From a virus: DNA of 30,991 nt. The notes beneath the pieces are model-generated. The model saw only the letters and a program-made list of their open reading frames with translations, searched no databases and was not told where the DNA came from. Shown here piece after piece: positions 20,016-27,807 of the stretch; within the stretch, counting starts at the first letter, position 1; each line of letters starts with the position of its first letter. The stretch lies in UHGV virus genome UHGV-0237462; one strand, given 5' to 3'. The position numbers and the translations under genes are program-made.

Positions 20016-21782
20016 ATGAACACCACACTGACACCCGCAGATCTCGATCCCCGTCGGCAAGCCATGCTGCTGTACTTTCAGGGATACCGCGTAGCCCGCA
20101 TTGCTGAAATGCTGGGCGAGAAAGTTGCAACCGTTCACAGCTGGAAAAAACGCGACAAGTGGGGTGACTATGGGCCGCTGGATCAGATGCAGCTCACCAC
20201 CGCCGCACGTTACTGCCAGCTCATTATGAAGGAGCACAAAGAAGGGAAAGATTTCAAAGAAATTGATCTGCTGGCGCGCCAGTCGGAGCGCCACGCGCGG
20301 ATCGGCAAGTTTAACAATGGCGGCAACGAAGCCGATTTAAACCCTAACGTCGCCAACCGCAACAAAGGCCCGCGCCGTCAGCCTGAAAAGAATGTTTTCA
20401 CCGATGAACAGATTGAGAAGCTGGAAGAAATCTTCCATTCCTCCATGTTCAACTACCAGCGTCACTGGTGGGAAGCCGGAAAAACCAACCGCATCCGCAA
20501 CCTGCTGAAGTCACGCCAGATCGGCGCAACCTTCTATTTTGCCCGTGAAGCCCTGATTGACGCCCTGCTAACCGGACGTAACCAGATTTTCCTTTCTGCC
20601 AGTAAGGCACAGGCGCACGTCTTTAAGCAGTACATCATCGACTTCGCCAAAGAAGTGGATGTGGAGCTGAAAGGCGATCCGATGGTGCTTCCCAACGGGG
20701 CCACACTGTATTTCCTCGGCACCAATGCCCGCACTGCCCAGAGTTACCACGGTAACCTGTATCTGGATGAATATTTCTGGATACCGAAATTCCAGGAGCT
20801 GCGCAAAGTGGCATCCGGTATGGCTATTCACAAAAAATGGCGACAAACCTATTTTTCCACGCCATCCAGCCTGACACACAGTGCTTATCCGTTCTGGTCC
20901 GGTGCGCTGTTCAACCGTGGGCGCAACAAAGCCGATAAGGTGGACATCGACCTGTCCCACAACAATCTGGCCCCCGGCCTGCTGTGCGCAGACGGGCAAT
21001 ACCGCCAGATAGTCACCGTGGAAGATGCGGTGCGCGGCGGATGTAACCTGTTCGATCTCGACCAGTTGCGCATGGAGTACAGCCCGGACGAATACCAGAA
21101 CCTGCTGATGTGCGAGTTCGTGGACGATCTCGCGTCCGTGTTCCCGCTCAGCGAACTGCAGGCGTGCATGGTGGACAGCTGGGAAGTCTGGACCGACTTT
21201 CATGCACTGGCCCTGCGCCCGTTTGGCTGGCGCGAAGTGTGGATCGGTTATGACCCGGCAAAAGGTACGCAGAACGGCGACAGTGCCGGATGCGTGGTGG
21301 TGGCTCCGCCAGCCGTGCCGGGTGGTAAGTTCCGCATTCTTGAGCGTCACCAGTGGCGCGGGATGGACTTCCGCGCCCAGGCTGACGCCATCAAAAAACT
21401 GACCGAACAGTATAACGTGACCTATATCGGTATCGACTCGACCGGCGTCGGTCACGGGGTTTACGAGAACGTGAAAGCGTTTTTTCCTGCCGTCAGGGAG
21501 TTTGTCTATAACCCCAACATTAAAAACGCCCTGGTACTCAAGGCCTACGACATTATCAGCCACCGCCGTCTGGAGTTTGACGCCGGGCACACCGACATTG
21601 CGCAGTCATTTATGGCAATCCGTCGCGCTACCACTGCCAGTGGCAACCGCCCGACCTATGAAGCCAGCCGCAGCGAAGAAGCCAGCCATGCCGATCTGGC
21701 CTGGGCAACAATGCACGCACTGTTTAACGAACCGCTGCAGGGCGAGTCCGCCAATACCAGCAATATTGTGGAGATTTTTTGA
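20016..21782 (+). CDS. P: Terminase large subunit (ATPase/nuclease) gpP
   Basis: 588 aa; P2 gpP-like; divergent from O. Confidence 0.9.
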   Translation: MNTTLTPADLDPRRQAMLLYFQGYRVARIAEMLGEKVATVHSWKKRDKWGDYGPLDQMQLTTAARYCQLIMKEHKEGKDFKEIDLLARQSERHARIGKFNNGGNEADLNPNVANRNKGPRRQPEKNVFTDEQIEKLEEIFHSSMFNYQRHWWEAGKTNRIRNLLKSRQIGATFYFAREALIDALLTGRNQIFLSASKAQAHVFKQYIIDFAKEVDVELKGDPMVLPNGATLYFLGTNARTAQSYHGNLYLDEYFWIPKFQELRKVASGMAIHKKWRQTYFSTPSSLTHSAYPFWSGALFNRGRNKADKVDIDLSHNNLAPGLLCADGQYRQIVTVEDAVRGGCNLFDLDQLRMEYSPDEYQNLLMCEFVDDLASVFPLSELQACMVDSWEVWTDFHALALRPFGWREVWIGYDPAKGTQNGDSAGCVVVAPPAVPGGKFRILERHQWRGMDFRAQADAIKKLTEQYNVTYIGIDSTGVGHGVYENVKAFFPAVREFVYNPNIKNALVLKAYDIISHRRLEFDAGHTDIAQSFMAIRRATTASGNRPTYEASRSEEASHADLAWATMHALFNEPLQGESANTSNIVEIF

Positions 21783-22816
21783 TGGGAAAGAGTAAGAAGA
21801 ACCGCGCTGCGTCGACGAAACAGATCCAGCATAAAGGCCAGACTTCAGCCGAAGCATTCAGCTTCGGTGATCCCGTTCCTGTTCTGGACCGCCGCGAACT
21901 GCTGGACTATGTGGAATGCGTACAGATGGATCGTTGGTATGAGCCGCCTGTGAGTTTCGACGGACTGGCGCGAACCTTCCGCGCCGCCGTGCATCACAGC
22001 TCACCGATTGCAGTGAAGTGCAACATTCTAACCAGCACCTACATCCCTCACCCGCTGCTCAGCCAGCAGGCTTTTTCGCGTTTTGTACAGGACTATCTGG
22101 TTTTTGGTAACGCCTACCTGGAGAAACGCACTAACCGCTTCGGTGAAGTTATCGCCCTTGAGCCTGCACTGGCAAAATACACCCGACGCGGGTTAGACCT
22201 GGATACCTACTGGTTTGTGCAATACGGCATGACTACGCAGCCGTATCAGTTCACGAAAGGCAACATTTTTCATCTGATGGAACCGGACATCAACCAGGAG
22301 ATCTACGGCCTGCCCGGTTATCTTTCTGCCATTCCGTCAGCTCTGCTCAACGAGTCCGCCACGCTGTTCCGCCGCAAGTATTACATTAACGGCAGTCATG
22401 CAGGCTTCATCATGTACATGACCGATGCAGCGCAGAACCAGGAGGATGTGAACAACCTCCGCAATGCGATGAAAAGCGCCAAAGGTCCTGGTAACTTCCG
22501 TAACCTGTTTATGTACTCGCCTAACGGTAAAAAGGACGGGCTTCAGATTATCCCGTTGTCAGAAGTGGCGGCGAAGGATGAGTTCCTGAATATCAAGAAC
22601 GTGAGCCGGGACGACATGATGGCGGCGCATCGTGTGCCGCCACAAATGATGGGGATAATGCCTAATAATGTCGGGGGGTTTGGGGATGTGGAGAAGGCCA
22701 GTCGCGTATTTGTACGTAATGAATTAACGCCCTTGCAAAAAAGGCTACAAGAGCTGAACGACTGGCTGGGCGAAGAAGTGATTAAATTTACGCCCTATAT
22801 TCTTTCAGAAGAATAA
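21782..22816 (+). CDS. Q: Portal protein gpQ
   Basis: ATG at 21782 overlapping the P stop (TGATG); 344 aa from this start. Confidence 0.9.
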   Translation: MGKSKKNRAASTKQIQHKGQTSAEAFSFGDPVPVLDRRELLDYVECVQMDRWYEPPVSFDGLARTFRAAVHHSSPIAVKCNILTSTYIPHPLLSQQAFSRFVQDYLVFGNAYLEKRTNRFGEVIALEPALAKYTRRGLDLDTYWFVQYGMTTQPYQFTKGNIFHLMEPDINQEIYGLPGYLSAIPSALLNESATLFRRKYYINGSHAGFIMYMTDAAQNQEDVNNLRNAMKSAKGPGNFRNLFMYSPNGKKDGLQIIPLSEVAAKDEFLNIKNVSRDDMMAAHRVPPQMMGIMPNNVGGFGDVEKASRVFVRNELTPLQKRLQELNDWLGEEVIKFTPYILSEE

Positions 22817-22824
22817 TTCCGAAC

Positions 22825-23523
22825 TTATTTGTTTCTTCTTTGTTCACGCCTTGTCTTGGCTTCGATAAGGCGTTGAGGTTCAGTGTAAAGCCGTTCTAAA
22901 AAAAGATAGGTAAAATCTTCAAGATCCTCAGCAGCAGCTTTATCCAAAATACCTTCATGCGCTCCATCATTTCCGTCATCTTTAACGCATTCAGCTAGTT
23001 CCCTTAAAGCTTCAGGCAGTAGATGATTATCAAATAACCACTCCATTCTTAACCCTAGGCTTCTCCTTATTTTTTGCGCAGGCCCTTGCTCCCCATCAGG
23101 AAGAAGTCCTTTTGTGGCATAATCAAGGCAAAGCCTAAACATGGTTGCTGCTGCATTATAACAACCTATAGCCAAACATTTCGCCCCTTCCTCATATGCA
23201 CTATTGATATGCTCAGGTAAGAACTCTGGTGGCTCCTCTACTGCTAAGTCTGCCGGTGATATAGGTCTAACAACCTCTGCAACTTCCTTTAAGCCGAATA
23301 TTCCACTTTCCCAATTATAGCCATCTAAAGTTTTATTTTTCGTTAAAGGTCTGCAAAGAAAAATTGTCGTTTTATGACACTCTCGGCAAACACAATAGAC
23401 CTCGTACTCGTATGTTTTACCCCCGCCCAATGCATTGTAAACCCTAGTGCAATTCAGCCCATTAACATCAAACGCTATTTTTTGTGATCCACATCGTGGA
23501 CAGTCATCCACTAACATAACCAT
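22825..23523 (-). CDS. Cargo protein: N-terminal zinc ribbon plus C-terminal helical domain resembling DUF4145 (possible HEPN-like effector), 232 aa
   Basis: ATG at 23523 with GGGAGGAG 8 nt upstream; CPRC ... CVCREC four-Cys ribbon; C-terminal half shows the pattern I associate with DUF4145 (..GNDGAHEG.. flanked by amphipathic helices); sits between cos and the 3' end of Q, converging on Q with an 8-bp gap. Confidence 0.65.
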   Translation of the reverse strand: MVMLVDDCPRCGSQKIAFDVNGLNCTRVYNALGGGKTYEYEVYCVCRECHKTTIFLCRPLTKNKTLDGYNWESGIFGLKEVAEVVRPISPADLAVEEPPEFLPEHINSAYEEGAKCLAIGCYNAAATMFRLCLDYATKGLLPDGEQGPAQKIRRSLGLRMEWLFDNHLLPEALRELAECVKDDGNDGAHEGILDKAAAEDLEDFTYLFLERLYTEPQRLIEAKTRREQRRNK

Positions 23524-23633
23524 GTCAATTACTCCTCCCTATGAAAAAAATGAGTTGAAAAATTGAATATTCACGACTTAAAAAGCTAGCCTATTTAACA
23601 CCATAATTTCATTAATTCAACCATGAGCGCGCG

Positions 23634-23652
23634 CTCGTATCCCCGCCACGCC
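23634..23652 (-). other. Probable cos site (19-nt cohesive end region)
   Basis: Minus-strand GGCGTGGCGGGGATACGAG followed by CGCGCGCTCATGG resembles my recollection of the P2 and 186 cohesive ends (GGCG.GGCGGGGA.. then .GCGCGCT.A.GG); location between A-side genes and Q is as expected. Confidence 0.5.
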
Positions 23653-23693
23653 TGCCCGCTTTATGTAGCGGTTTTCATGCGCCTGCATGACAT

Positions 23694-23721
23694 AAGCAAA
23701 AGCCCGCCACTCCTGGCGGGC
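23694..23721 (-). terminator. Rho-independent terminator ending the right-arm transcript just before cos
   Basis: Stem GCCCGCCA (23702-23709) / TGGCGGGC (23714-23721), loop CTCC; on the minus strand followed by TTTTGCTT. Confidence 0.6.
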
Positions 23722-23812
23722 CTCAGCTAAAACGATCCTCAAACGATCATGCGGATTCATGCGGCATAGACATGCACAATCTCCAAAGCGGGCATCGAGA
23801 CTTTTTGGAAAC

Positions 23813-24424
23813 CTACGTAACCACAGTTAATGTGTGCATCCTGTCTCGAATTGCATCACACGTCTCATCAAAAAGCTTGGTGATGGTTGTACGGTTCAAC
23901 TCCGCCTCTTTCCAATAATTTTGCCCGTCAAATTCTGGATCGCTATGCTTAAACGATATTGACTCTGAAAGGCATTCCTTCCGGAAACGGTCCAAGATTA
24001 TATAAACCTCTGGTGAGATGAACGGTTTGTTAGATTCAACACTTGTAACAAAAGTATTAAATGCATCAAAAAAAACTTTCAACCTTCTAAATTTTCTCTC
24101 TTCAAATGGTTCGTTGGGGTCAACATGATCCAGCGCAGGCCTCAGCTTAAGCACGCTTTCTCTGGTTTCAAACATCGAATTCCAAATGAGACTATATGCT
24201 GATAACTCCTTATCAAAATACGCTTTCGTTACATAAACAGAATTGTCTAACTTAGCCTTTATTCTTTCATTAGTTGCACTCAGTTGTGATTGAAATTCAG
24301 CAATATCTTTGTTTAGCCGCGACTTATATCTTTCTAAATAAACTTTCCCGATCCAAACAAATATGCTAGATGCAACAAAAGACACCCCACCCAACGAAGC
24401 CAGAACTTTAAAGACTAAATCCAT
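23813..24424 (-). CDS. AT-rich cargo protein, N-terminal TM anchor plus soluble helical domain, 203 aa
   Basis: ATG at 24424 with GGTGGGGG upstream; hydrophobic N-terminus (VLASLGGVSFVASSIFVWIG); own consensus -10 upstream and terminator downstream; visibly AT-rich. Confidence 0.65.
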   Translation of the reverse strand: MDLVFKVLASLGGVSFVASSIFVWIGKVYLERYKSRLNKDIAEFQSQLSATNERIKAKLDNSVYVTKAYFDKELSAYSLIWNSMFETRESVLKLRPALDHVDPNEPFEERKFRRLKVFFDAFNTFVTSVESNKPFISPEVYIILDRFRKECLSESISFKHSDPEFDGQNYWKEAELNRTTITKLFDETCDAIRDRMHTLTVVT

Positions 24425-24453
24425 TGCGCCCCCACCTGCAAAAATAGTATTCC

Positions 24454-24459
24454 ATTATA
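24454..24459 (-). promoter_or_regulatory. Consensus -10 hexamer TATAAT for the 203-aa cargo gene
   Basis: Minus strand TTGATT-15 bp-TATAAT about 30 nt upstream of the ATG; the spacer is shorter than optimal. Confidence 0.35.
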
Positions 24460-24472
24460 AGCTAATACATTT

Positions 24473-24733
24473 TTAATCAAACAGGGGATAATTCGCGTCA
24501 ACCTCATCACTTCTCTGCTCTACCCTAGTGACTTCCATCAAAAACCCCAGGCCGTCATATAGCGAAACGGGGAATTCCAGCTCAAGCCAGAAGCAGTCTT
24601 CATAGATGCGGCCCAACCAAAAACCTCCGCCACACTCCTTTGGGCGTTGAAAGAAGACCCAGTCGCCAAGGGTTAAACGTTCCAGCACCTGGCCCCGATA
24701 AATAATCTGGTGATTACTGTCTTTTTTACCCAT
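24473..24733 (-). CDS. Hypothetical protein (86 aa from the ATG at 24733)
   Basis: The ORF-track start is TTG; the internal ATG with GAGG 8 nt upstream is preferred; no recognisable motif. Confidence 0.5.
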   Translation of the reverse strand: MGKKDSNHQIIYRGQVLERLTLGDWVFFQRPKECGGGFWLGRIYEDCFWLELEFPVSLYDGLGFLMEVTRVEQRSDEVDANYPLFD

Positions 24734-24806
24734 GGCTAACGCCTCGCTACTCTCGTTGTTCAACCTTGCTGACGTCAGATTCAAGTTCTTACATCAGGAA
24801 CGTTCC

Positions 24807-25040
24807 TTAGTGCAGCCAGCTGTCGTCTTCCCAAACCTGTTGCATAATTTCCATCACCCGCTTTTTGTCTTCATCAAGCTTTAAGCCACTCAGCTCAACG
24901 CCGTTTGCCGACCCTTTACGGATGCGGATAGCGGTCTTGGGATAGATGGGTTGCAGGTTGCGGTAAAGCTCGGACTCCAGAGCGTCTAAGGTAGACTGGC
25001 TAATCTTCTGCTCTTTATCGATCATTATTTCAATGCGCAT
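24807..25040 (-). CDS. DinI-family protein (77 aa); likely the C-terminal module of a Tum-like SOS antirepressor
   Basis: MRIEIMIDKEQKISQSTLDALESELYRNLQ...WEDDSW aligns along its length with E. coli DinI as I recall it. Confidence 0.7.
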   Translation of the reverse strand: MRIEIMIDKEQKISQSTLDALESELYRNLQPIYPKTAIRIRKGSANGVELSGLKLDEDKKRVMEIMQQVWEDDSWLH

Positions 25041-25050
25041 AAAAGTCACC

Positions 25051-25239
25051 TCAGCTGATGACATCCATTGAGCGGTTGTATTCGTGGCTTCTGATTTTTG
25101 CCATGAGTTCATCAGTCAATTCAGAAACCCACTGCAGGGCCAGCCCCTTCTCTTCATCACTACACTCACTAGCCGCTACAAGCTTAAGAAAAAAATCAAT
25201 GCGCTGGAGCTTCAAAGACTCCAAAAAATAGTCCTGCAT
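25051..25239 (-). CDS. Small protein (62 aa) immediately downstream of the LexA box; possible N-terminal part of a split Tum-like antirepressor
   Basis: ATG at 25239 with GGAGG 4 nt upstream; the stop lies 11 nt before the DinI-like start. Confidence 0.5.
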   Translation of the reverse strand: MQDYFLESLKLQRIDFFLKLVAASECSDEEKGLALQWVSELTDELMAKIRSHEYNRSMDVIS

Positions 25240-25280
25240 CTTTCCTCCTATGACACCGCAAACAATACTGTATAGATAAC

Positions 25281-25300
25281 CACTGTTTATATTTACAGTA
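25281..25300. promoter_or_regulatory. LexA (SOS) box
   Basis: CACTGTTTATATTTACAGTA contains CTGT-N8-ACAG with an AT-rich spacer; centred about 51 bp upstream of the 62-aa ORF. Confidence 0.65.
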
Positions 25301-25392
25301 TATAATAATCTTACTGATGTAAAACGTTTTTTTACGTTCATCAGCCTGATATGCCTGGTATTATTAAGAGCACGAATTGTTAACCCGCGTAA

Positions 25393-27807
25393 TTAATACA
25401 GGTTCCGCCACTTATCATCTTCCTGCAAACGCTGGTTCCGATAGAAGACACGCAGGCCTGCTCCTGACGGAATACTGCCGCCGCGAAGGAGTAAATCGAC
25501 CTCTTTCTCGCTGCCATCAAATCCTCTGGACTTCAGTTCATAGACGAGCTGCTGTCGTTGATGGTCTGTAATTCGCTGTTTGTAGTCTCTACGCCGTTTC
25601 GGTTTCACCAGGCGTAACCTTGCAGCCAGTTCCCGGCGCTCTTTTTTGTTCATACTGTGCAGGTAATCGTGCAACTCCTTGTCATCCATGTGGGTAATGT
25701 CCGTTCTGGTATCCCCATCAGCTGATTTGTCTTTCCCTTGTTGGTTCAAATTTTCAGCAAGGGGACAGTTATTGCCACGAGTCCAAGGGGCGCAAGCGCC
25801 CTGGTCGGCAGCCGCCTCCTGAACGTCAACGGCCTTACGAACCATTTTCCACTTCACTGCATGAGTGCAGATCTTGCCCTCTGCAATGGGTGACCAGATG
25901 CCATAAATACGAATACCGTGATCGCCATAGGCGGTTGGCTCTTCGTTGATTTCATAAGCGGTTCTGATGAGGTGATATTTGCGGGGAACCAGTACGCCGC
26001 CCTGCTTCATGATGTAGGTGGCAAAACAACCAGCATCAGCAGCAGCCAGGATGGCATCAAGGCGCGGGTTATCCAGTACCGGCGCACCTGCTTTTTTGTC
26101 ACCCTGTTGCCTTGCCGCCTGACCAGCCAGCAATCGCAGTTCACGGTAAGCCTGACGCCCCGGAATGCCAAAGAAGCGGAATTGCTGAACACGATGCAGA
26201 GACGCCCAGGCATTAACGTATTCAGCGTTATCACGCAGGGATTTACCCGTTTCCTTACTGATCTCGCCAGCCAGACCACGCCCGTCAATATTCTTACTGA
26301 TATATTTCGCAATGTAGCTTGTCGGCGTTCCTTTGCGCGGGTTTATCAGCTCAGACTTAAAGCGTGGCCCCGTGTTATTGCCCAGCTCCTCGCGGTCTTC
26401 TCGGATGGCAAACTTACGCAACAATGCAGTAATGGCGCGGCGGTCTTTTTTGCGCATGAAACACAACAGGTGCCAGTGAACTGTGCCGTCATGATGCGGC
26501 TCAGCCACCCGCACGCCATACCAGCGCAACCCGGCTTTGTGCATAGCCTTACGAAATGCAGCAAACATGCCGACCAGATAATCGCTGCTTTGTCTTACTG
26601 TCGCGTTGGTCCAGGTCGGGTTTGGCCTGCCGTTATTTAGCGTGGAATGGAAACGTGACGGACAGGTGATGGTGTAGAAAACGGCGCAGTCACCACGCAT
26701 TTCCGCGATAAGCTCCAGGCCTTTAACACAGGCCATCATCTCGTTGCGGCGATGCGCCGGGTTGCTGCTGCTGGCGTTTACCACATCCTCCATGTTCAGC
26801 GTGTCGCCGTCTTCGTTCACCAGTTCATGAGAACGGAAAAACTCCAGCGACTTACGGCGCTGCTCACGTTTATGCATCACGGCTTCATAGCTGACATAGG
26901 GAGATGCTTTTTTGCTGACAAGGCAGACAGCACGCAACTGCTCTTCCCGCCATTCGCAACGCATCTTCCATAATTTCCGATACCACCAGTCGGCGCACAG
27001 CATACGCGCCAGCGAACCCGGAATGAGTTCATAAGGCACAGGTTTGCGGCGGTTTCTTTTCCGGCGGAGTTGCTCAAACGCAGGCGGTATGACATCCAGT
27101 CGCAGGGTTTCTGCAGCCACCTTTTCCCATGTCTTGCGGATTTCTTCTGGCTTAACATCATCGGAGGCGTACAAATCACCACAAGCGGCATCAAGACACA
27201 TGCTCATATGCGCAGCGACAAGGGTAGACAGGCGTTTCACCTGATCCTGACTCATTTCAGGCAGGATCAGCAGACCGTCCAGCCCTTCATGGCTTGCCAT
27301 AAAACGAAAAGATGCAGATAGCTGGCTGTCGCGTATATGCTCCAGTCGTTCCAGACATGGCTTAATCGTCTCACGCAAATAGCGGGAATAAGCCTTTGGC
27401 CTGCCCAGGCTGCTGAAATATTCAATACGTTGCATCAGCGGCTTGCTGATATGGGAAGGCTGGGCGTTGACGTCAGCCAGAATGACCATGTCTGGATTAA
27501 AACGCTGCTGCTCATGCGCCATCTTTGCCCGGCTAATGAGCTTATCCTGCTCCATTTCGCGTTGGACAGGATCACGGGATTCATTAAAGAAATAACGCTC
27601 CCAGACCTGATCACTCAGTGCCTCGCGGCGCAGTTGTTCCTGCTCGTTATCGGTAGCGTACAGAGTGATCAGGTTTGAAAGCGCAGAAACCGGCGCAACT
27701 TCCGCCGGGTCCAGATAAGGGTTAATGGCCTTTTTCGGGCTGTTCCATGAGAATGCTGCGGCGACCTTGTTAAAGCCGCTGCAGTTGTTCATATCAGCAT
27801 GGCTCAT
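25393..27807 (-). CDS. A: Replication initiation endonuclease gpA (rolling-circle)
   Basis: 804 aa; P2/186 A-like size and position; start overlaps the Dam stop (ATGA). Confidence 0.9.

Follow-up and report, generated by a model that had tools for sequence, protein, structure and literature searches.

Two cargo genes flanking cos in the gpA-gpQ region of a P2-like prophage are probably unrelated passengers of separate slots

Temperate phages carry small membrane-anchored superinfection-exclusion or abortive-infection proteins, those of the Sie type among them, and there are also sensor-plus-effector defence systems with a membrane protein among their components. P2 itself has the known genes tin and old on its gpA side. 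In P2-like phages, the interval between gpA and gpQ, adjacent to cos and also called the tin/old or "TO" region, is described as a defence hotspot (Rousset et al. 2022, PMC9122126; Vassallo et al. 2022, PMC9519451). RAZR, a system of one gene, combines a ZFD, which is variable and sets specificity, with a DUF4145 HEPN domain, and its residues R146 and H154 are essential. It senses phage ring proteins directly, with no membrane partner; a 24-mer assembles around the ring proteins, single-stranded RNA is cleaved and infection is aborted, a mechanism that is known for RAZR-Ec and RAZR-Kv only (PMC13017515).

We analysed a 30,991-nt stretch of the virus genome UHGV-0237462, referred to below as the window. 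Open reading frames and Pfam matches show the P2 order of terminase, portal, cos, DinI and gpA. The segment of interest belongs to a Fels-2/186-type P2-like prophage that is essentially Cartapus of E. coli LF82, in which it forms the accessory region next to cos (gpA-gpQ "hotspot 1"; Table 1). On its left the hotspot is bounded by the conserved portal gene, which converges with ORF232, the two ORFs ending 8 bp apart. The initial annotation of this DNA had described ORF232 and ORF203 as minus-strand cargo genes, and their strand, coordinates and low GC content were all confirmed. ORF103 adjoins ORF203 in this lineage and is missing beside ORF203 in other prophages (loci L001 and L086-L093).

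Table 1. Features of the cos-proximal region, with positions counted along the whole window
Feature	Position	Strand	Basis or remark
Portal gene (gpQ homologue)	21779..22816	+	Pfam Phage_portal PF04860, E=1e-18; RefSeq "phage portal protein" in near-identical strains
ORF232, zinc ribbon plus DUF4145/HEPN, RAZR/PD-T7-4-like	22825..23523	-	Portal-side slot cargo; 232 aa
ORF232 5' region with GGGAGGAG ribosome-binding site just upstream of ATG	23524..23625	-	Sequence, and expression in the lysogen; promoter presumed
Conserved cos block, ~150 bp, parting the two cargo slots	~23626..23777	.	83-95% identity to relatives; overlaps the Cartapus "putative cos site"
Predicted 19-nt cohesive-end sequence GGCGTGGCGGGGATACGAG	23634..23652	-	Pattern match
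Terminator-like G+C-rich hairpin GCCCGCCAGGAGTGGCGGGC followed by TTTTGCTT	23694..23721	-	RNA fold; downstream of ORF203, within the cos block
ORF203, N-terminal membrane anchor plus four-helix bundle, uncharacterised family	23813..24424	-	gpA-side slot cargo; 203 aa
TATAAT, perfect hexamer, candidate -10	24454..24459	-	30 nt upstream of the ORF203 start; presumptive
ORF103 (86 aa in RefSeq), small protein	24473..24784	-	phrog_2100
DinI-family gene, semi-conserved part of the right arm	24807..25112	-	Pfam DinI, 3.8e-24
Replication endonuclease gpA, conserved right boundary of the hotspot	25393..27807	-	Pfam Phage_GPA PF05840, 2e-127

Across this region the window is ~99% identical to the LF82 prophage, Escherichia phage Cartapus (OV696611; PMC9928086). 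The gene order is alike, and CARTA_1 (the DUF4145 gene) and CARTA_47 (the 203-aa gene) share 99.6% and 97% protein identity, respectively, with their window counterparts. The window is a sister prophage of Cartapus, closest to that of E. coli CEA212U; in a second hotspot, beside gpD, the window gene differs from the Cartapus gene, and there is otherwise no substantial difference. This exact gene arrangement is already listed in Table S5 of Rousset 2022 (PMC9122126): the protein series WP_096953872, DinI, WP_119121388, WP_096953868 and WP_112020959 is that of the window, and the rows carry WP accessions of both LF82 and CEA212U. Searches of the literature by accession for the ORF232 and ORF203 proteins found no paper.

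The two genes had been proposed to flank a cos-like site and so to occupy the two extremes of linear virion DNA. The predicted cos core and the Cartapus record both agree with this: the record has been opened at a "putative cos site" whose bases 1-59 correspond to window positions 23684-23626, with CARTA_1 as its first gene and CARTA_47 as its last. The P2/186-type core GGCGTGGCGGGG (23652-23641, minus strand) was the sole match of a pattern search in the window; the pattern on its own is not rare, with at least one match in 24 of 100 shuffles, and the core is credible because of its position. The predicted cohesive-end sequence GGCGTGGCGGGGATACGAG presumably corresponds to the 19-nt cohesive ends of P2 and 186. 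The same core separates the two slots in each of the 20 P2-like loci checked, and the surrounding block is 83-95% identical in many Fels-2-like, SopEPhi and Klebsiella/Yersinia P2-like phages, with flanks that diverge on both sides.

The 289-bp spacer between ORF232 and ORF203 had been read as a terminator plus a cos-like site; it contains the cos core, the conserved block and a hairpin 3' of ORF203. The hairpin may well be a terminator, but it went uncalled in a consensus scan for terminators and falls within the cos block, which makes the label plausible only. Promoter signals are similarly indistinct. A consensus sigma-70 scan called no minus-strand promoter upstream of ORF232, and it did not call the TATAAT hexamer upstream of ORF203, where a good -35 element is missing. 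Because scanning called none of these elements, we treat the promoters of both genes, like the hairpin, as presumptive.

Published RNA-seq data for the LF82 lysogen show that both genes are transcribed while the neighbouring portal gene is silent. Normalised counts are 45.8 for CARTA_47 and 25.6 for CARTA_1, against a prophage median of 6.9 and 7.7 for the portal gene (PMC9928086, S1 Table). The ORF203 transcript is about 5 times as abundant as that of the gene upstream. The log2 levels of ORF203/ORF232 are ~5.5/4.7 in LB, 7.2/7.1 and 8.6/7.6 in DMEM, and 9.0/9.2 and 10.5/9.5 in macrophages. Such similar, co-varying levels could mean that the genes, though functionally independent, form one read-through unit across cos in the prophage or circular form, fed by the ORF203 promoter or by the SOS-driven DinI/early side, with cos cleavage uncoupling their expression on linear DNA only. 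SOS-type genes upstream likewise rise in macrophages, and the scan result for the ORF232 upstream region also fits this explanation. We nevertheless consider it rather unlikely, given the strong hairpin and T-tract downstream of ORF203 and the fact that the ORF232 family stands alone outside P2 contexts. Moreover, ORF232 keeps a distance of ~115-120 bp from cos across loci and is paired with other upstream cargos, and it must therefore be expressible by itself.

The cargo on the two sides of cos was compared in 68 close relatives whose portal genes are at least 93% identical. The distance from portal to cos ranges from 191 to 3532 bp among these elements, and that from cos to gpA from 803 to 5108 bp. 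There are 42 cargo types on the portal side and 23 on the gpA side, found in 58 distinct pairings. The portal-side slot, which is filled in 67 of the 68 elements, holds most of the recognisable defence genes in the lineage; the contents of the same slots include AIPR, retron-like RT, OLD-like, AbiL-like and PDC-S31 genes. ORF203-type genes stand opposite at least nine portal-side cargos: the DUF4145 gene, AIPR, a 223-aa unknown, STM3845+RT, an OLD-like ATPase, AAA_21+RloB, SLFN/HATPase, and unknowns of 557 and 550 aa. Conversely, the DUF4145 gene (ORF232) is found opposite at least four gpA-side cargos, namely ORF203, a 433-aa unknown, DUF2971 (PDC-S31) and a 280+71-aa pair.

The window resembles the published gpA-gpQ region in its flanking genes, its proximity to cos, its hypervariability and its low GC content. 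In the parts of the sources used here, that region is presented as one hotspot (PMC9122126; PMC9519451), whereas our data resolve two slots that reassort independently across the cos block. It is thus probable that the hotspot of the window holds two unrelated, independently exchanged passenger genes, one self-contained low-GC gene per slot. Contents would be exchanged in each slot separately, with homologous recombination in the conserved flanking sequences (the portal gene, the cos block and the DinI/gpA side) as the presumed route. The adjacency of ORF232 and ORF203 is then a consequence of the slot structure of the phage genome and not of a joint function. Cleavage at cos cuts neither gene, and their separation in virion DNA is therefore without evident functional consequence. 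The initial annotation had regarded the genes as a compact two-gene island, in an arrangement that would be unusual if the two worked together. The first idea does not survive the comparison, in which either gene recurs in its own slot of other P2-like prophages, facing a wide variety of genes on the far side of cos. Nor is the arrangement unusual: cargo sits on both sides of cos in 51 of the 68 elements, the arrangement itself appears in Table S5 as noted above, and a known defence hotspot with separately swappable, unrelated genes is ordinary for this phage group.

A functional link between the genes would be expected to leave a trace in their distribution. Among complete E. coli genomes the DUF4145 gene is present in 43 and ORF203 in 52; 25 genomes have both, 18 have ORF232 alone and 27 have ORF203 alone. 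Random assortment predicts ~1.8 genomes with both (43 x 52 / 1276), in a sample that includes clonal isolates such as 7 CUVET isolates and 2 LF82 assemblies. The excess is explained by physical linkage and clonal sampling, without functional coupling. It had been suggested that the pair works as a membrane sensor and an RNase-like effector, so that ORF203 (sensor or anchor) and ORF232 (effector) would be one two-component system, assembled only in the circular or prophage form. The shared strand, the 289-bp distance, expression of both genes in the lysogen with parallel changes across conditions, and the 25 genomes with both genes are all compatible with such a system. We judge it very improbable, however, because the pair does not co-occur outside this linkage group even at the profile level. 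Profile searches that recovered all positive controls found ORF203 relatives in 0 of 80 ORF232-family loci from other species and ORF232 relatives in 0 of 16 ORF203-family loci, and co-occurrence of homologues elsewhere was the sign of cooperation that the initial annotation had looked to. The ORF232 family has no conserved neighbour across the 80 species, the largest neighbour cluster being a serine recombinase at 6 of 80 loci. Each gene is paired with many alternatives across cos, and the terminator-like hairpin and the cos block lie between the two. Finally, RAZR-type proteins act alone: RAZR, the closest characterised relative of ORF232, is a single gene with no membrane partner (PMC13017515).

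The description of ORF232 as a zinc-ribbon, RNase-like protein proved sound. Alignment of 25 close and 3 distant homologues shows four invariant cysteines (C8, C11, C46 and C49), giving a Cys4 zinc ribbon in an N-terminal domain that is beta-rich in the AF2 model; by profile and fold searches, the C-terminal part is a DUF4145 domain with the HEPN fold. ORF232 matched the PADLOC profile PDLC04109 for PD-T7-4 significantly but weakly (E=9.1e-7, 26.5 bits; this profile has no curated cut-off), over residues 36-200 of the protein and positions 39-165 of the 211 in the profile. Neither the protein nor its family profile matched any PDB sequence, and no RAZR structure was among the matches of the fold searches.

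With RAZR (PD-T7-4), ORF232 shares the N-terminal Cys4 zinc ribbon, the C-terminal DUF4145/HEPN domain and the lack of a conserved partner gene. In both proteins the zinc-ribbon half is the most variable; mean identity to ORF232 is 38% over residues 1-95 and 70% over residues 96-232. The spacing of 8 between the basic residue and the histidine is also the same (K181...H189 in ORF232, R146...H154 in RAZR). H189, in the motif GNDGAH, is invariant, and the GNxxxH core is kept over distant phyla. The differences are equally clear. ORF232 is distant from RAZR in sequence, with ~25-33% identity to Arg-containing phage homologues, is ~20 residues longer than the 211-position PD-T7-4 profile and, unlike RAZR, is encoded in a P2-like prophage directly beside the phage's own portal gene. 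Moreover, its subfamily has Lys for the catalytic Arg throughout: Lys181 is found in 25 of 25 aligned members at the position of R146 in RAZR, and aligns with Arg in Stx-phage, Burkholderia-phage and Gordonia-phage homologues. Since Lys replaces the canonical HEPN Arg in every aligned member, RNase activity of ORF232 is not assured.

This substitution, the presence of a zinc ribbon and the label "DNA binding protein" attached to phrog_1305, to which ORF232 belongs, could instead indicate a DNA-binding regulator rather than a nuclease. That reading is quite improbable: the fold is HEPN; even distant phyla retain the GNxxxH core and its His189 without exception; RAZR, the relative that has been characterised, is an RNase (PMC13017515); and the PHROG label is a putative annotation. 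By analogy with RAZR, ORF232 would most likely act alone as an abortive-infection RNase, in which the variable zinc ribbon may recognise a ring-forming protein of an invading phage, whereupon the conserved HEPN domain would cleave RNA. RAZR senses portal rings and ORF232 is encoded beside a portal gene of its own phage, which raises the question of self versus non-self.

ORF203 has one N-terminal hydrophobic helix, with a 19-residue Kyte-Doolittle maximum of 1.98 at residues 7-25 and values no higher than 0.56 thereafter; the protein is predicted to be a small four-helix bundle that lies in the cytoplasm and is anchored in the inner membrane through this helix. Its family comprises ~900 clusters at 50% identity, a size visible only by exhaustive profile search, as a word-indexed search recovered few relatives. 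Conserved elements are E73, W81, an LRPxLD motif, P134, E154 and a C-x2-IR-x-R motif. Profile, PHROG and fold searches found no sequence similarity or specific fold similarity to any described family, and none of 5027 PADLOC models matched. Two candidate assignments were rejected: the RefSeq name "valyl-tRNA synthetase" reflects a coiled-coil match of 16.7 bits, below the cut-off of 25.9, and an AT-rich 237-aa transmembrane protein at 214-927 is not a relative (hhalign probability 0.4%).

Members of the ORF203 family occur singly as cargo in mobile elements of various types; besides the P2 hotspot, they are found in a PICI-like element that carries DUF4238, at a lambdoid tail-fibre slot, in an smpB island and in a Vibrio cassette array. 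ORF203 resembles Sie-type superinfection-exclusion proteins in its small size, its single N-terminal TM helix, its expression from the prophage and its occurrence in moron positions. These features suggest, if weakly, that ORF203 is most likely a stand-alone superinfection-exclusion or defence factor, or another factor of benefit to the lysogen; genomic context is the whole basis of the defence assignment.

It is also conceivable that ORF203 is a host-fitness (lysogenic conversion) factor, with an envelope role in intracellular or stress growth for example, and not an anti-phage gene. Only two Cartapus morons are called in LF82, of which it is one, its transcript is ~30-fold (5 log2 units) higher in macrophages at 6 h than in LB, and the PADLOC result is in keeping with such a role. 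We hold this to be fairly unlikely, as the slots in which the family is found mostly hold defence genes (the P2 hotspot, the PICI-like element with DUF4238, the lambdoid tail-fibre moron slot and a cassette array with Abi_C). Furthermore, these samples also show a rise of CI and ORF232, which means that the increase in ORF203 may not be specific. Returning to a role in defence, we tentatively raise the possibility that ORF203 founds an undescribed single-gene family of membrane-anchored four-helix bundles that protects lysogens from other phages or satellites, a lone cassette to which P2 hotspots, PICI-like satellites, lambdoid moron slots and integron-like arrays would all be open, and that the cos block is a recombination pivot that makes two independently shuffled slots out of the "single" P2 hotspot.

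ORF203 is a widely mobile, single-gene candidate for phage defence that is strongly expressed in an AIEC lysogen, and ORF232 exemplifies a widespread subfamily of RAZR-like proteins whose HEPN motif has Lys in place of Arg. For P2-like phages, a hotspot made of two slots that pivot on cos means that genes facing each other across cos should not be merged into one "system."

Relative to the P2 map, this P2-like prophage lies in reversed orientation, and between 22.5 and 25 kb its G+C content drops to 0.41-0.44, from about 0.55. Prophages of E. coli CEA212U and LF82, among others, match the region at 99-99.6% identity, and it is near-identical to the deposited phage Cartapus (OV696611; Peduoviridae), the LF82 prophage, described as close to Fels-2 (PMC9928086). 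A P2/186-type cos core, GGCGTGGCGGGG, occurs once in the window, within the spacer between ORF232 (zinc-ribbon-DUF4145 protein) and ORF203 (membrane-anchored protein); the pattern by itself is not rare (at least one match in 24 of 100 shuffles). The core is embedded in a conserved block that is 83-95% identical in dozens of Fels-2-like, SopEPhi, Klebsiella and Yersinia P2-like phages, among which the DNA flanking the block differs on both sides. The authors of the Cartapus record opened it at the "putative cos site" of the same spacer, with the DUF4145 gene CARTA_1 (ORF232) first and the 203-aa gene CARTA_47 (ORF203) last. The two genes have the stated positions, and core, block and gene order all bear out that they flank the putative cos site.

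Features of the cos region and of comparison loci (window positions unless a locus is named)
Feature	Position	Strand
237-aa ORF	214-927	
Tail gene D	1314-2414	
Large terminase	20016-21782	+
Portal gpQ	21779-22816	+
Portal gene and ORF232 together	21779-23523	
ORF232	22825-23523	-
K181..H189 codons of ORF232	22957-22983	
Spacer, 289 bp	between ORF232 and ORF203	
47-aa ORF	23617-23760	-
Conserved cos block	about 23626-23777	
cos core	23652-23641	-
cos core to ORF203 stop codon	23652-23813	
Same interval, Enterobacter	L086-L093:6612-6784	
ORF203	23813-24424	-
ORF103, then DinI gene, then small ORF	in order between ORF203 and gpA	
Replication endonuclease gpA	25393-27807	-
Macrophage-raised genes (CARTA_44-47 and CARTA_1)	22825-25341	
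Split ORF203 copy, E. coli	L003:3302-4075	
Integrase-AlpA elements, Enterobacter	L179:3063-10612; L181:3071-10612	
Meyran gene 1	L186:94-783	

Downstream of ORF203 and within the conserved block, a G+C-rich hairpin is followed by TTTTGCTT; since the consensus scan made no terminator call for it and it lies inside the block, its role as a terminator is only plausible. The 47-aa ORF overlaps both core and hairpin, and the block carries a "hypothetical protein" annotation in some phage records. This ORF is probably not a gene, its conservation being more simply explained by cos function.

ORF232 and ORF203 are cargo genes independent of each other, and the gpA-gpQ hotspot of P2-like phages in which they lie is already described. 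The initial annotation had suggested that they might act as a membrane sensor and a nuclease/RNase-like effector, and had proposed co-occurrence of homologues elsewhere as the check; the pairing failed it. Among 80 species-level loci carrying ORF232 relatives (43-83% identity), an ORF203-family member was found within 6 kb at none by tblastn or profile, and none of 16 ORF203-family loci carried a zinc-ribbon-DUF4145 gene. Only 5 of the 80 loci lay in P2-like prophages, and no neighbour family was common to more than 6. The ORF232 gene was present in 43 complete E. coli genomes, ORF203 in 52 and both in 25, and the joint excess over random assortment fits physical linkage over 290 bp together with clonal sampling.

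Nor do the genes form a compact two-gene island, since each has many alternative partners across cos. Eight Enterobacter-type P2-like prophages share a single ORF203 homologue, invariant in sequence and 83% identical to ORF203; opposite it lies a 223-aa unknown, AIPR, STM3845 plus a reverse transcriptase, an OLD-like ATPase, AAA_21 plus RloB, or Schlafen/HATPase; the Citrobacter ORF203-type gene faces 557-aa or 550-aa unknowns, and ORF203 of E. coli FDN-11 faces AIPR. The DUF4145 gene stays beside the portal, with a 433-aa unknown, DUF2971 (PDC-S31) or a 280+71-aa pair on the far side. In both E. coli and Enterobacter the ORF203-type stop codon is exactly 161 bp from the cos core, and this constant spacing suggests that the right half of the cos block is transferred or retained together with the gene.

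The arrangement is known and not unusual. For LF82 and for the strain nearest to the window, Table S5 of Rousset et al. (PMC9122126) lists precisely this series of proteins ("hypothetical + DinI + hypothetical + hypothetical + DUF4145"), and Vassallo et al. (PMC9519451) report four new systems at the same hotspot. We measured both sides of the cos core in 80 viral contigs with portals at least 93% identical: portal-to-cos distances had a median of 1700 bp, the extremes being 191 bp (empty) and 3532 bp, and cos-to-gpA distances ran from 803 bp (small ORF and DinI only) to 5108 bp. Clustering of cargo DNA from 68 elements (67 contigs and the window) gave 42 types on the portal side and 23 on the gpA side, combined in 58 different ways. 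Both sides were occupied in 51 of the 68, and of the 17 portal-side types that recurred, 14 had more than one gpA-side partner type. A division of the hotspot by the conserved cos block into two slots, each shuffled independently of the other, may go beyond the published passages.

An exhaustive profile search placed 916 cluster representatives (E<=1e-3), mostly of about 200 aa, in the ORF203 family, with E73, W81, LRPxLD, P134, E154 and C-x2-IR-x-R conserved. Members occur as lone genes in the P2 hotspot, in a small integrase-AlpA-AAA_25 element in a lambdoid prophage capsid gene, adjoining a lambdoid tail-tip gene, in an island adjoining smpB and in a Vibrio array of small same-strand genes, which fits a self-contained accessory gene. 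From genomic context, our best guess is a role in exclusion or defence. The RefSeq name "valyl-tRNA synthetase", carried in many genomes, is a misannotation (PF10458 coiled-coil arm, 16.7 bits against a cut-off of 25.9). In Enterobacter, an element of ~6.5 kb with integrase, AlpA, an ORF203 homologue (47-48% identity) and AAA_25, plus DUF4238 in L181, interrupts the lambdoid major capsid gene (Phage_cap_E), leaving pieces of 84-91 aa and 346 aa; it has the appearance of a satellite or PICI-like element inserted into the capsid gene of another phage. E. coli 2012EL-2448 and 10 other genomes have a 90%-identical copy outside any P2-like prophage; dprA and an integrase fragment adjoin it in a decayed island. 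In L003 this copy is unannotated and broken into two reading-frame pieces, and is likely a pseudogene. Where the second P2 hotspot (Z/fun) lies, adjoining tail gene D, the window has an AT-rich 237-aa ORF (GC, 0.35) with an N-terminal hydrophobic segment; it gave no PADLOC match and was rejected as an ORF203 relative on comparison. LF82/Cartapus differs there, with LF82_783, a "putative exonuclease" and the strongest Cartapus moron.

ORF232 falls in Pfam DUF4145 above the curated cut-off and weakly matches PADLOC PD-T7-4 (E=9e-7), now named RAZR, in which an N-terminal Cys4 zinc finger precedes DUF4145, a divergent HEPN RNase domain (PMC13017515). By this analogy, the RNase-like guess for the zinc-ribbon protein appears good. 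RAZR acts alone and is activated by assembly around ring-shaped phage proteins, namely, a recombinase or the portals of T3, T7 and SECphi18; R146 and H154 are both required, and specificity resides in the variable zinc finger (PMC13017515). ORF232 shares the architecture, its four Cys and GNDGAH189 motif are invariant, and its N-terminal half is likewise far more variable (38% versus 70% identity in the C-terminal half). However, the residue eight positions before the His is Lys181 rather than Arg, and ORF232, which probably works like RAZR, is not placed in its family. The Lys of this K-x7-H motif (CVKDDGNDGAH) was found in 25 of 25 aligned members, from Enterobacteria to Nitrospira, whereas more distant homologues in Stx phages, a Burkholderia phage and a Gordonia phage have the canonical Arg. 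ORF232 would thus belong to a Lys-variant, RAZR-like subfamily beside the phage's own portal gene, a proposal that may go beyond the published passages. The two genes are convergent, with 8 bp between ORF ends, and activation of RAZR by portal rings of other phages raises the question of self-triggering on prophage induction. Gene 1 of the unrelated actinophage Meyran (Gordonia), a 27%-identical zinc-ribbon-DUF4145 homologue with the canonical Arg, is likewise the first gene beside the end of its genome and immediately precedes the terminase genes.

Both genes are transcribed in the lysogen, as judged from LF82 grown in LB, where CARTA_47, one of two Cartapus genes called morons, reached 45.8 normalised counts and CARTA_1 25.6, above the prophage median (6.9) and the portal gene (7.7) (PMC9928086). 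The gene just upstream of ORF203 had 9.0, so ORF203 evidently has a promoter of its own, for which a perfect TATAAT, 30 nt before the start of the ORF, is a candidate element. In macrophages, transcripts of both genes increase strongly, along with those of CI and the upstream SOS-type genes (PMC9928086), so read-through across cos from ORF203 to ORF232 could occur, which would not imply shared function. The small ORF, DinI, ORF103, ORF203 and ORF232 were all up 4-7 log2 units in macrophages, with structural genes silent (PMC9928086), a pattern consistent with SOS or stress driving transcription of the cos-proximal arm while the prophage is not fully induced.
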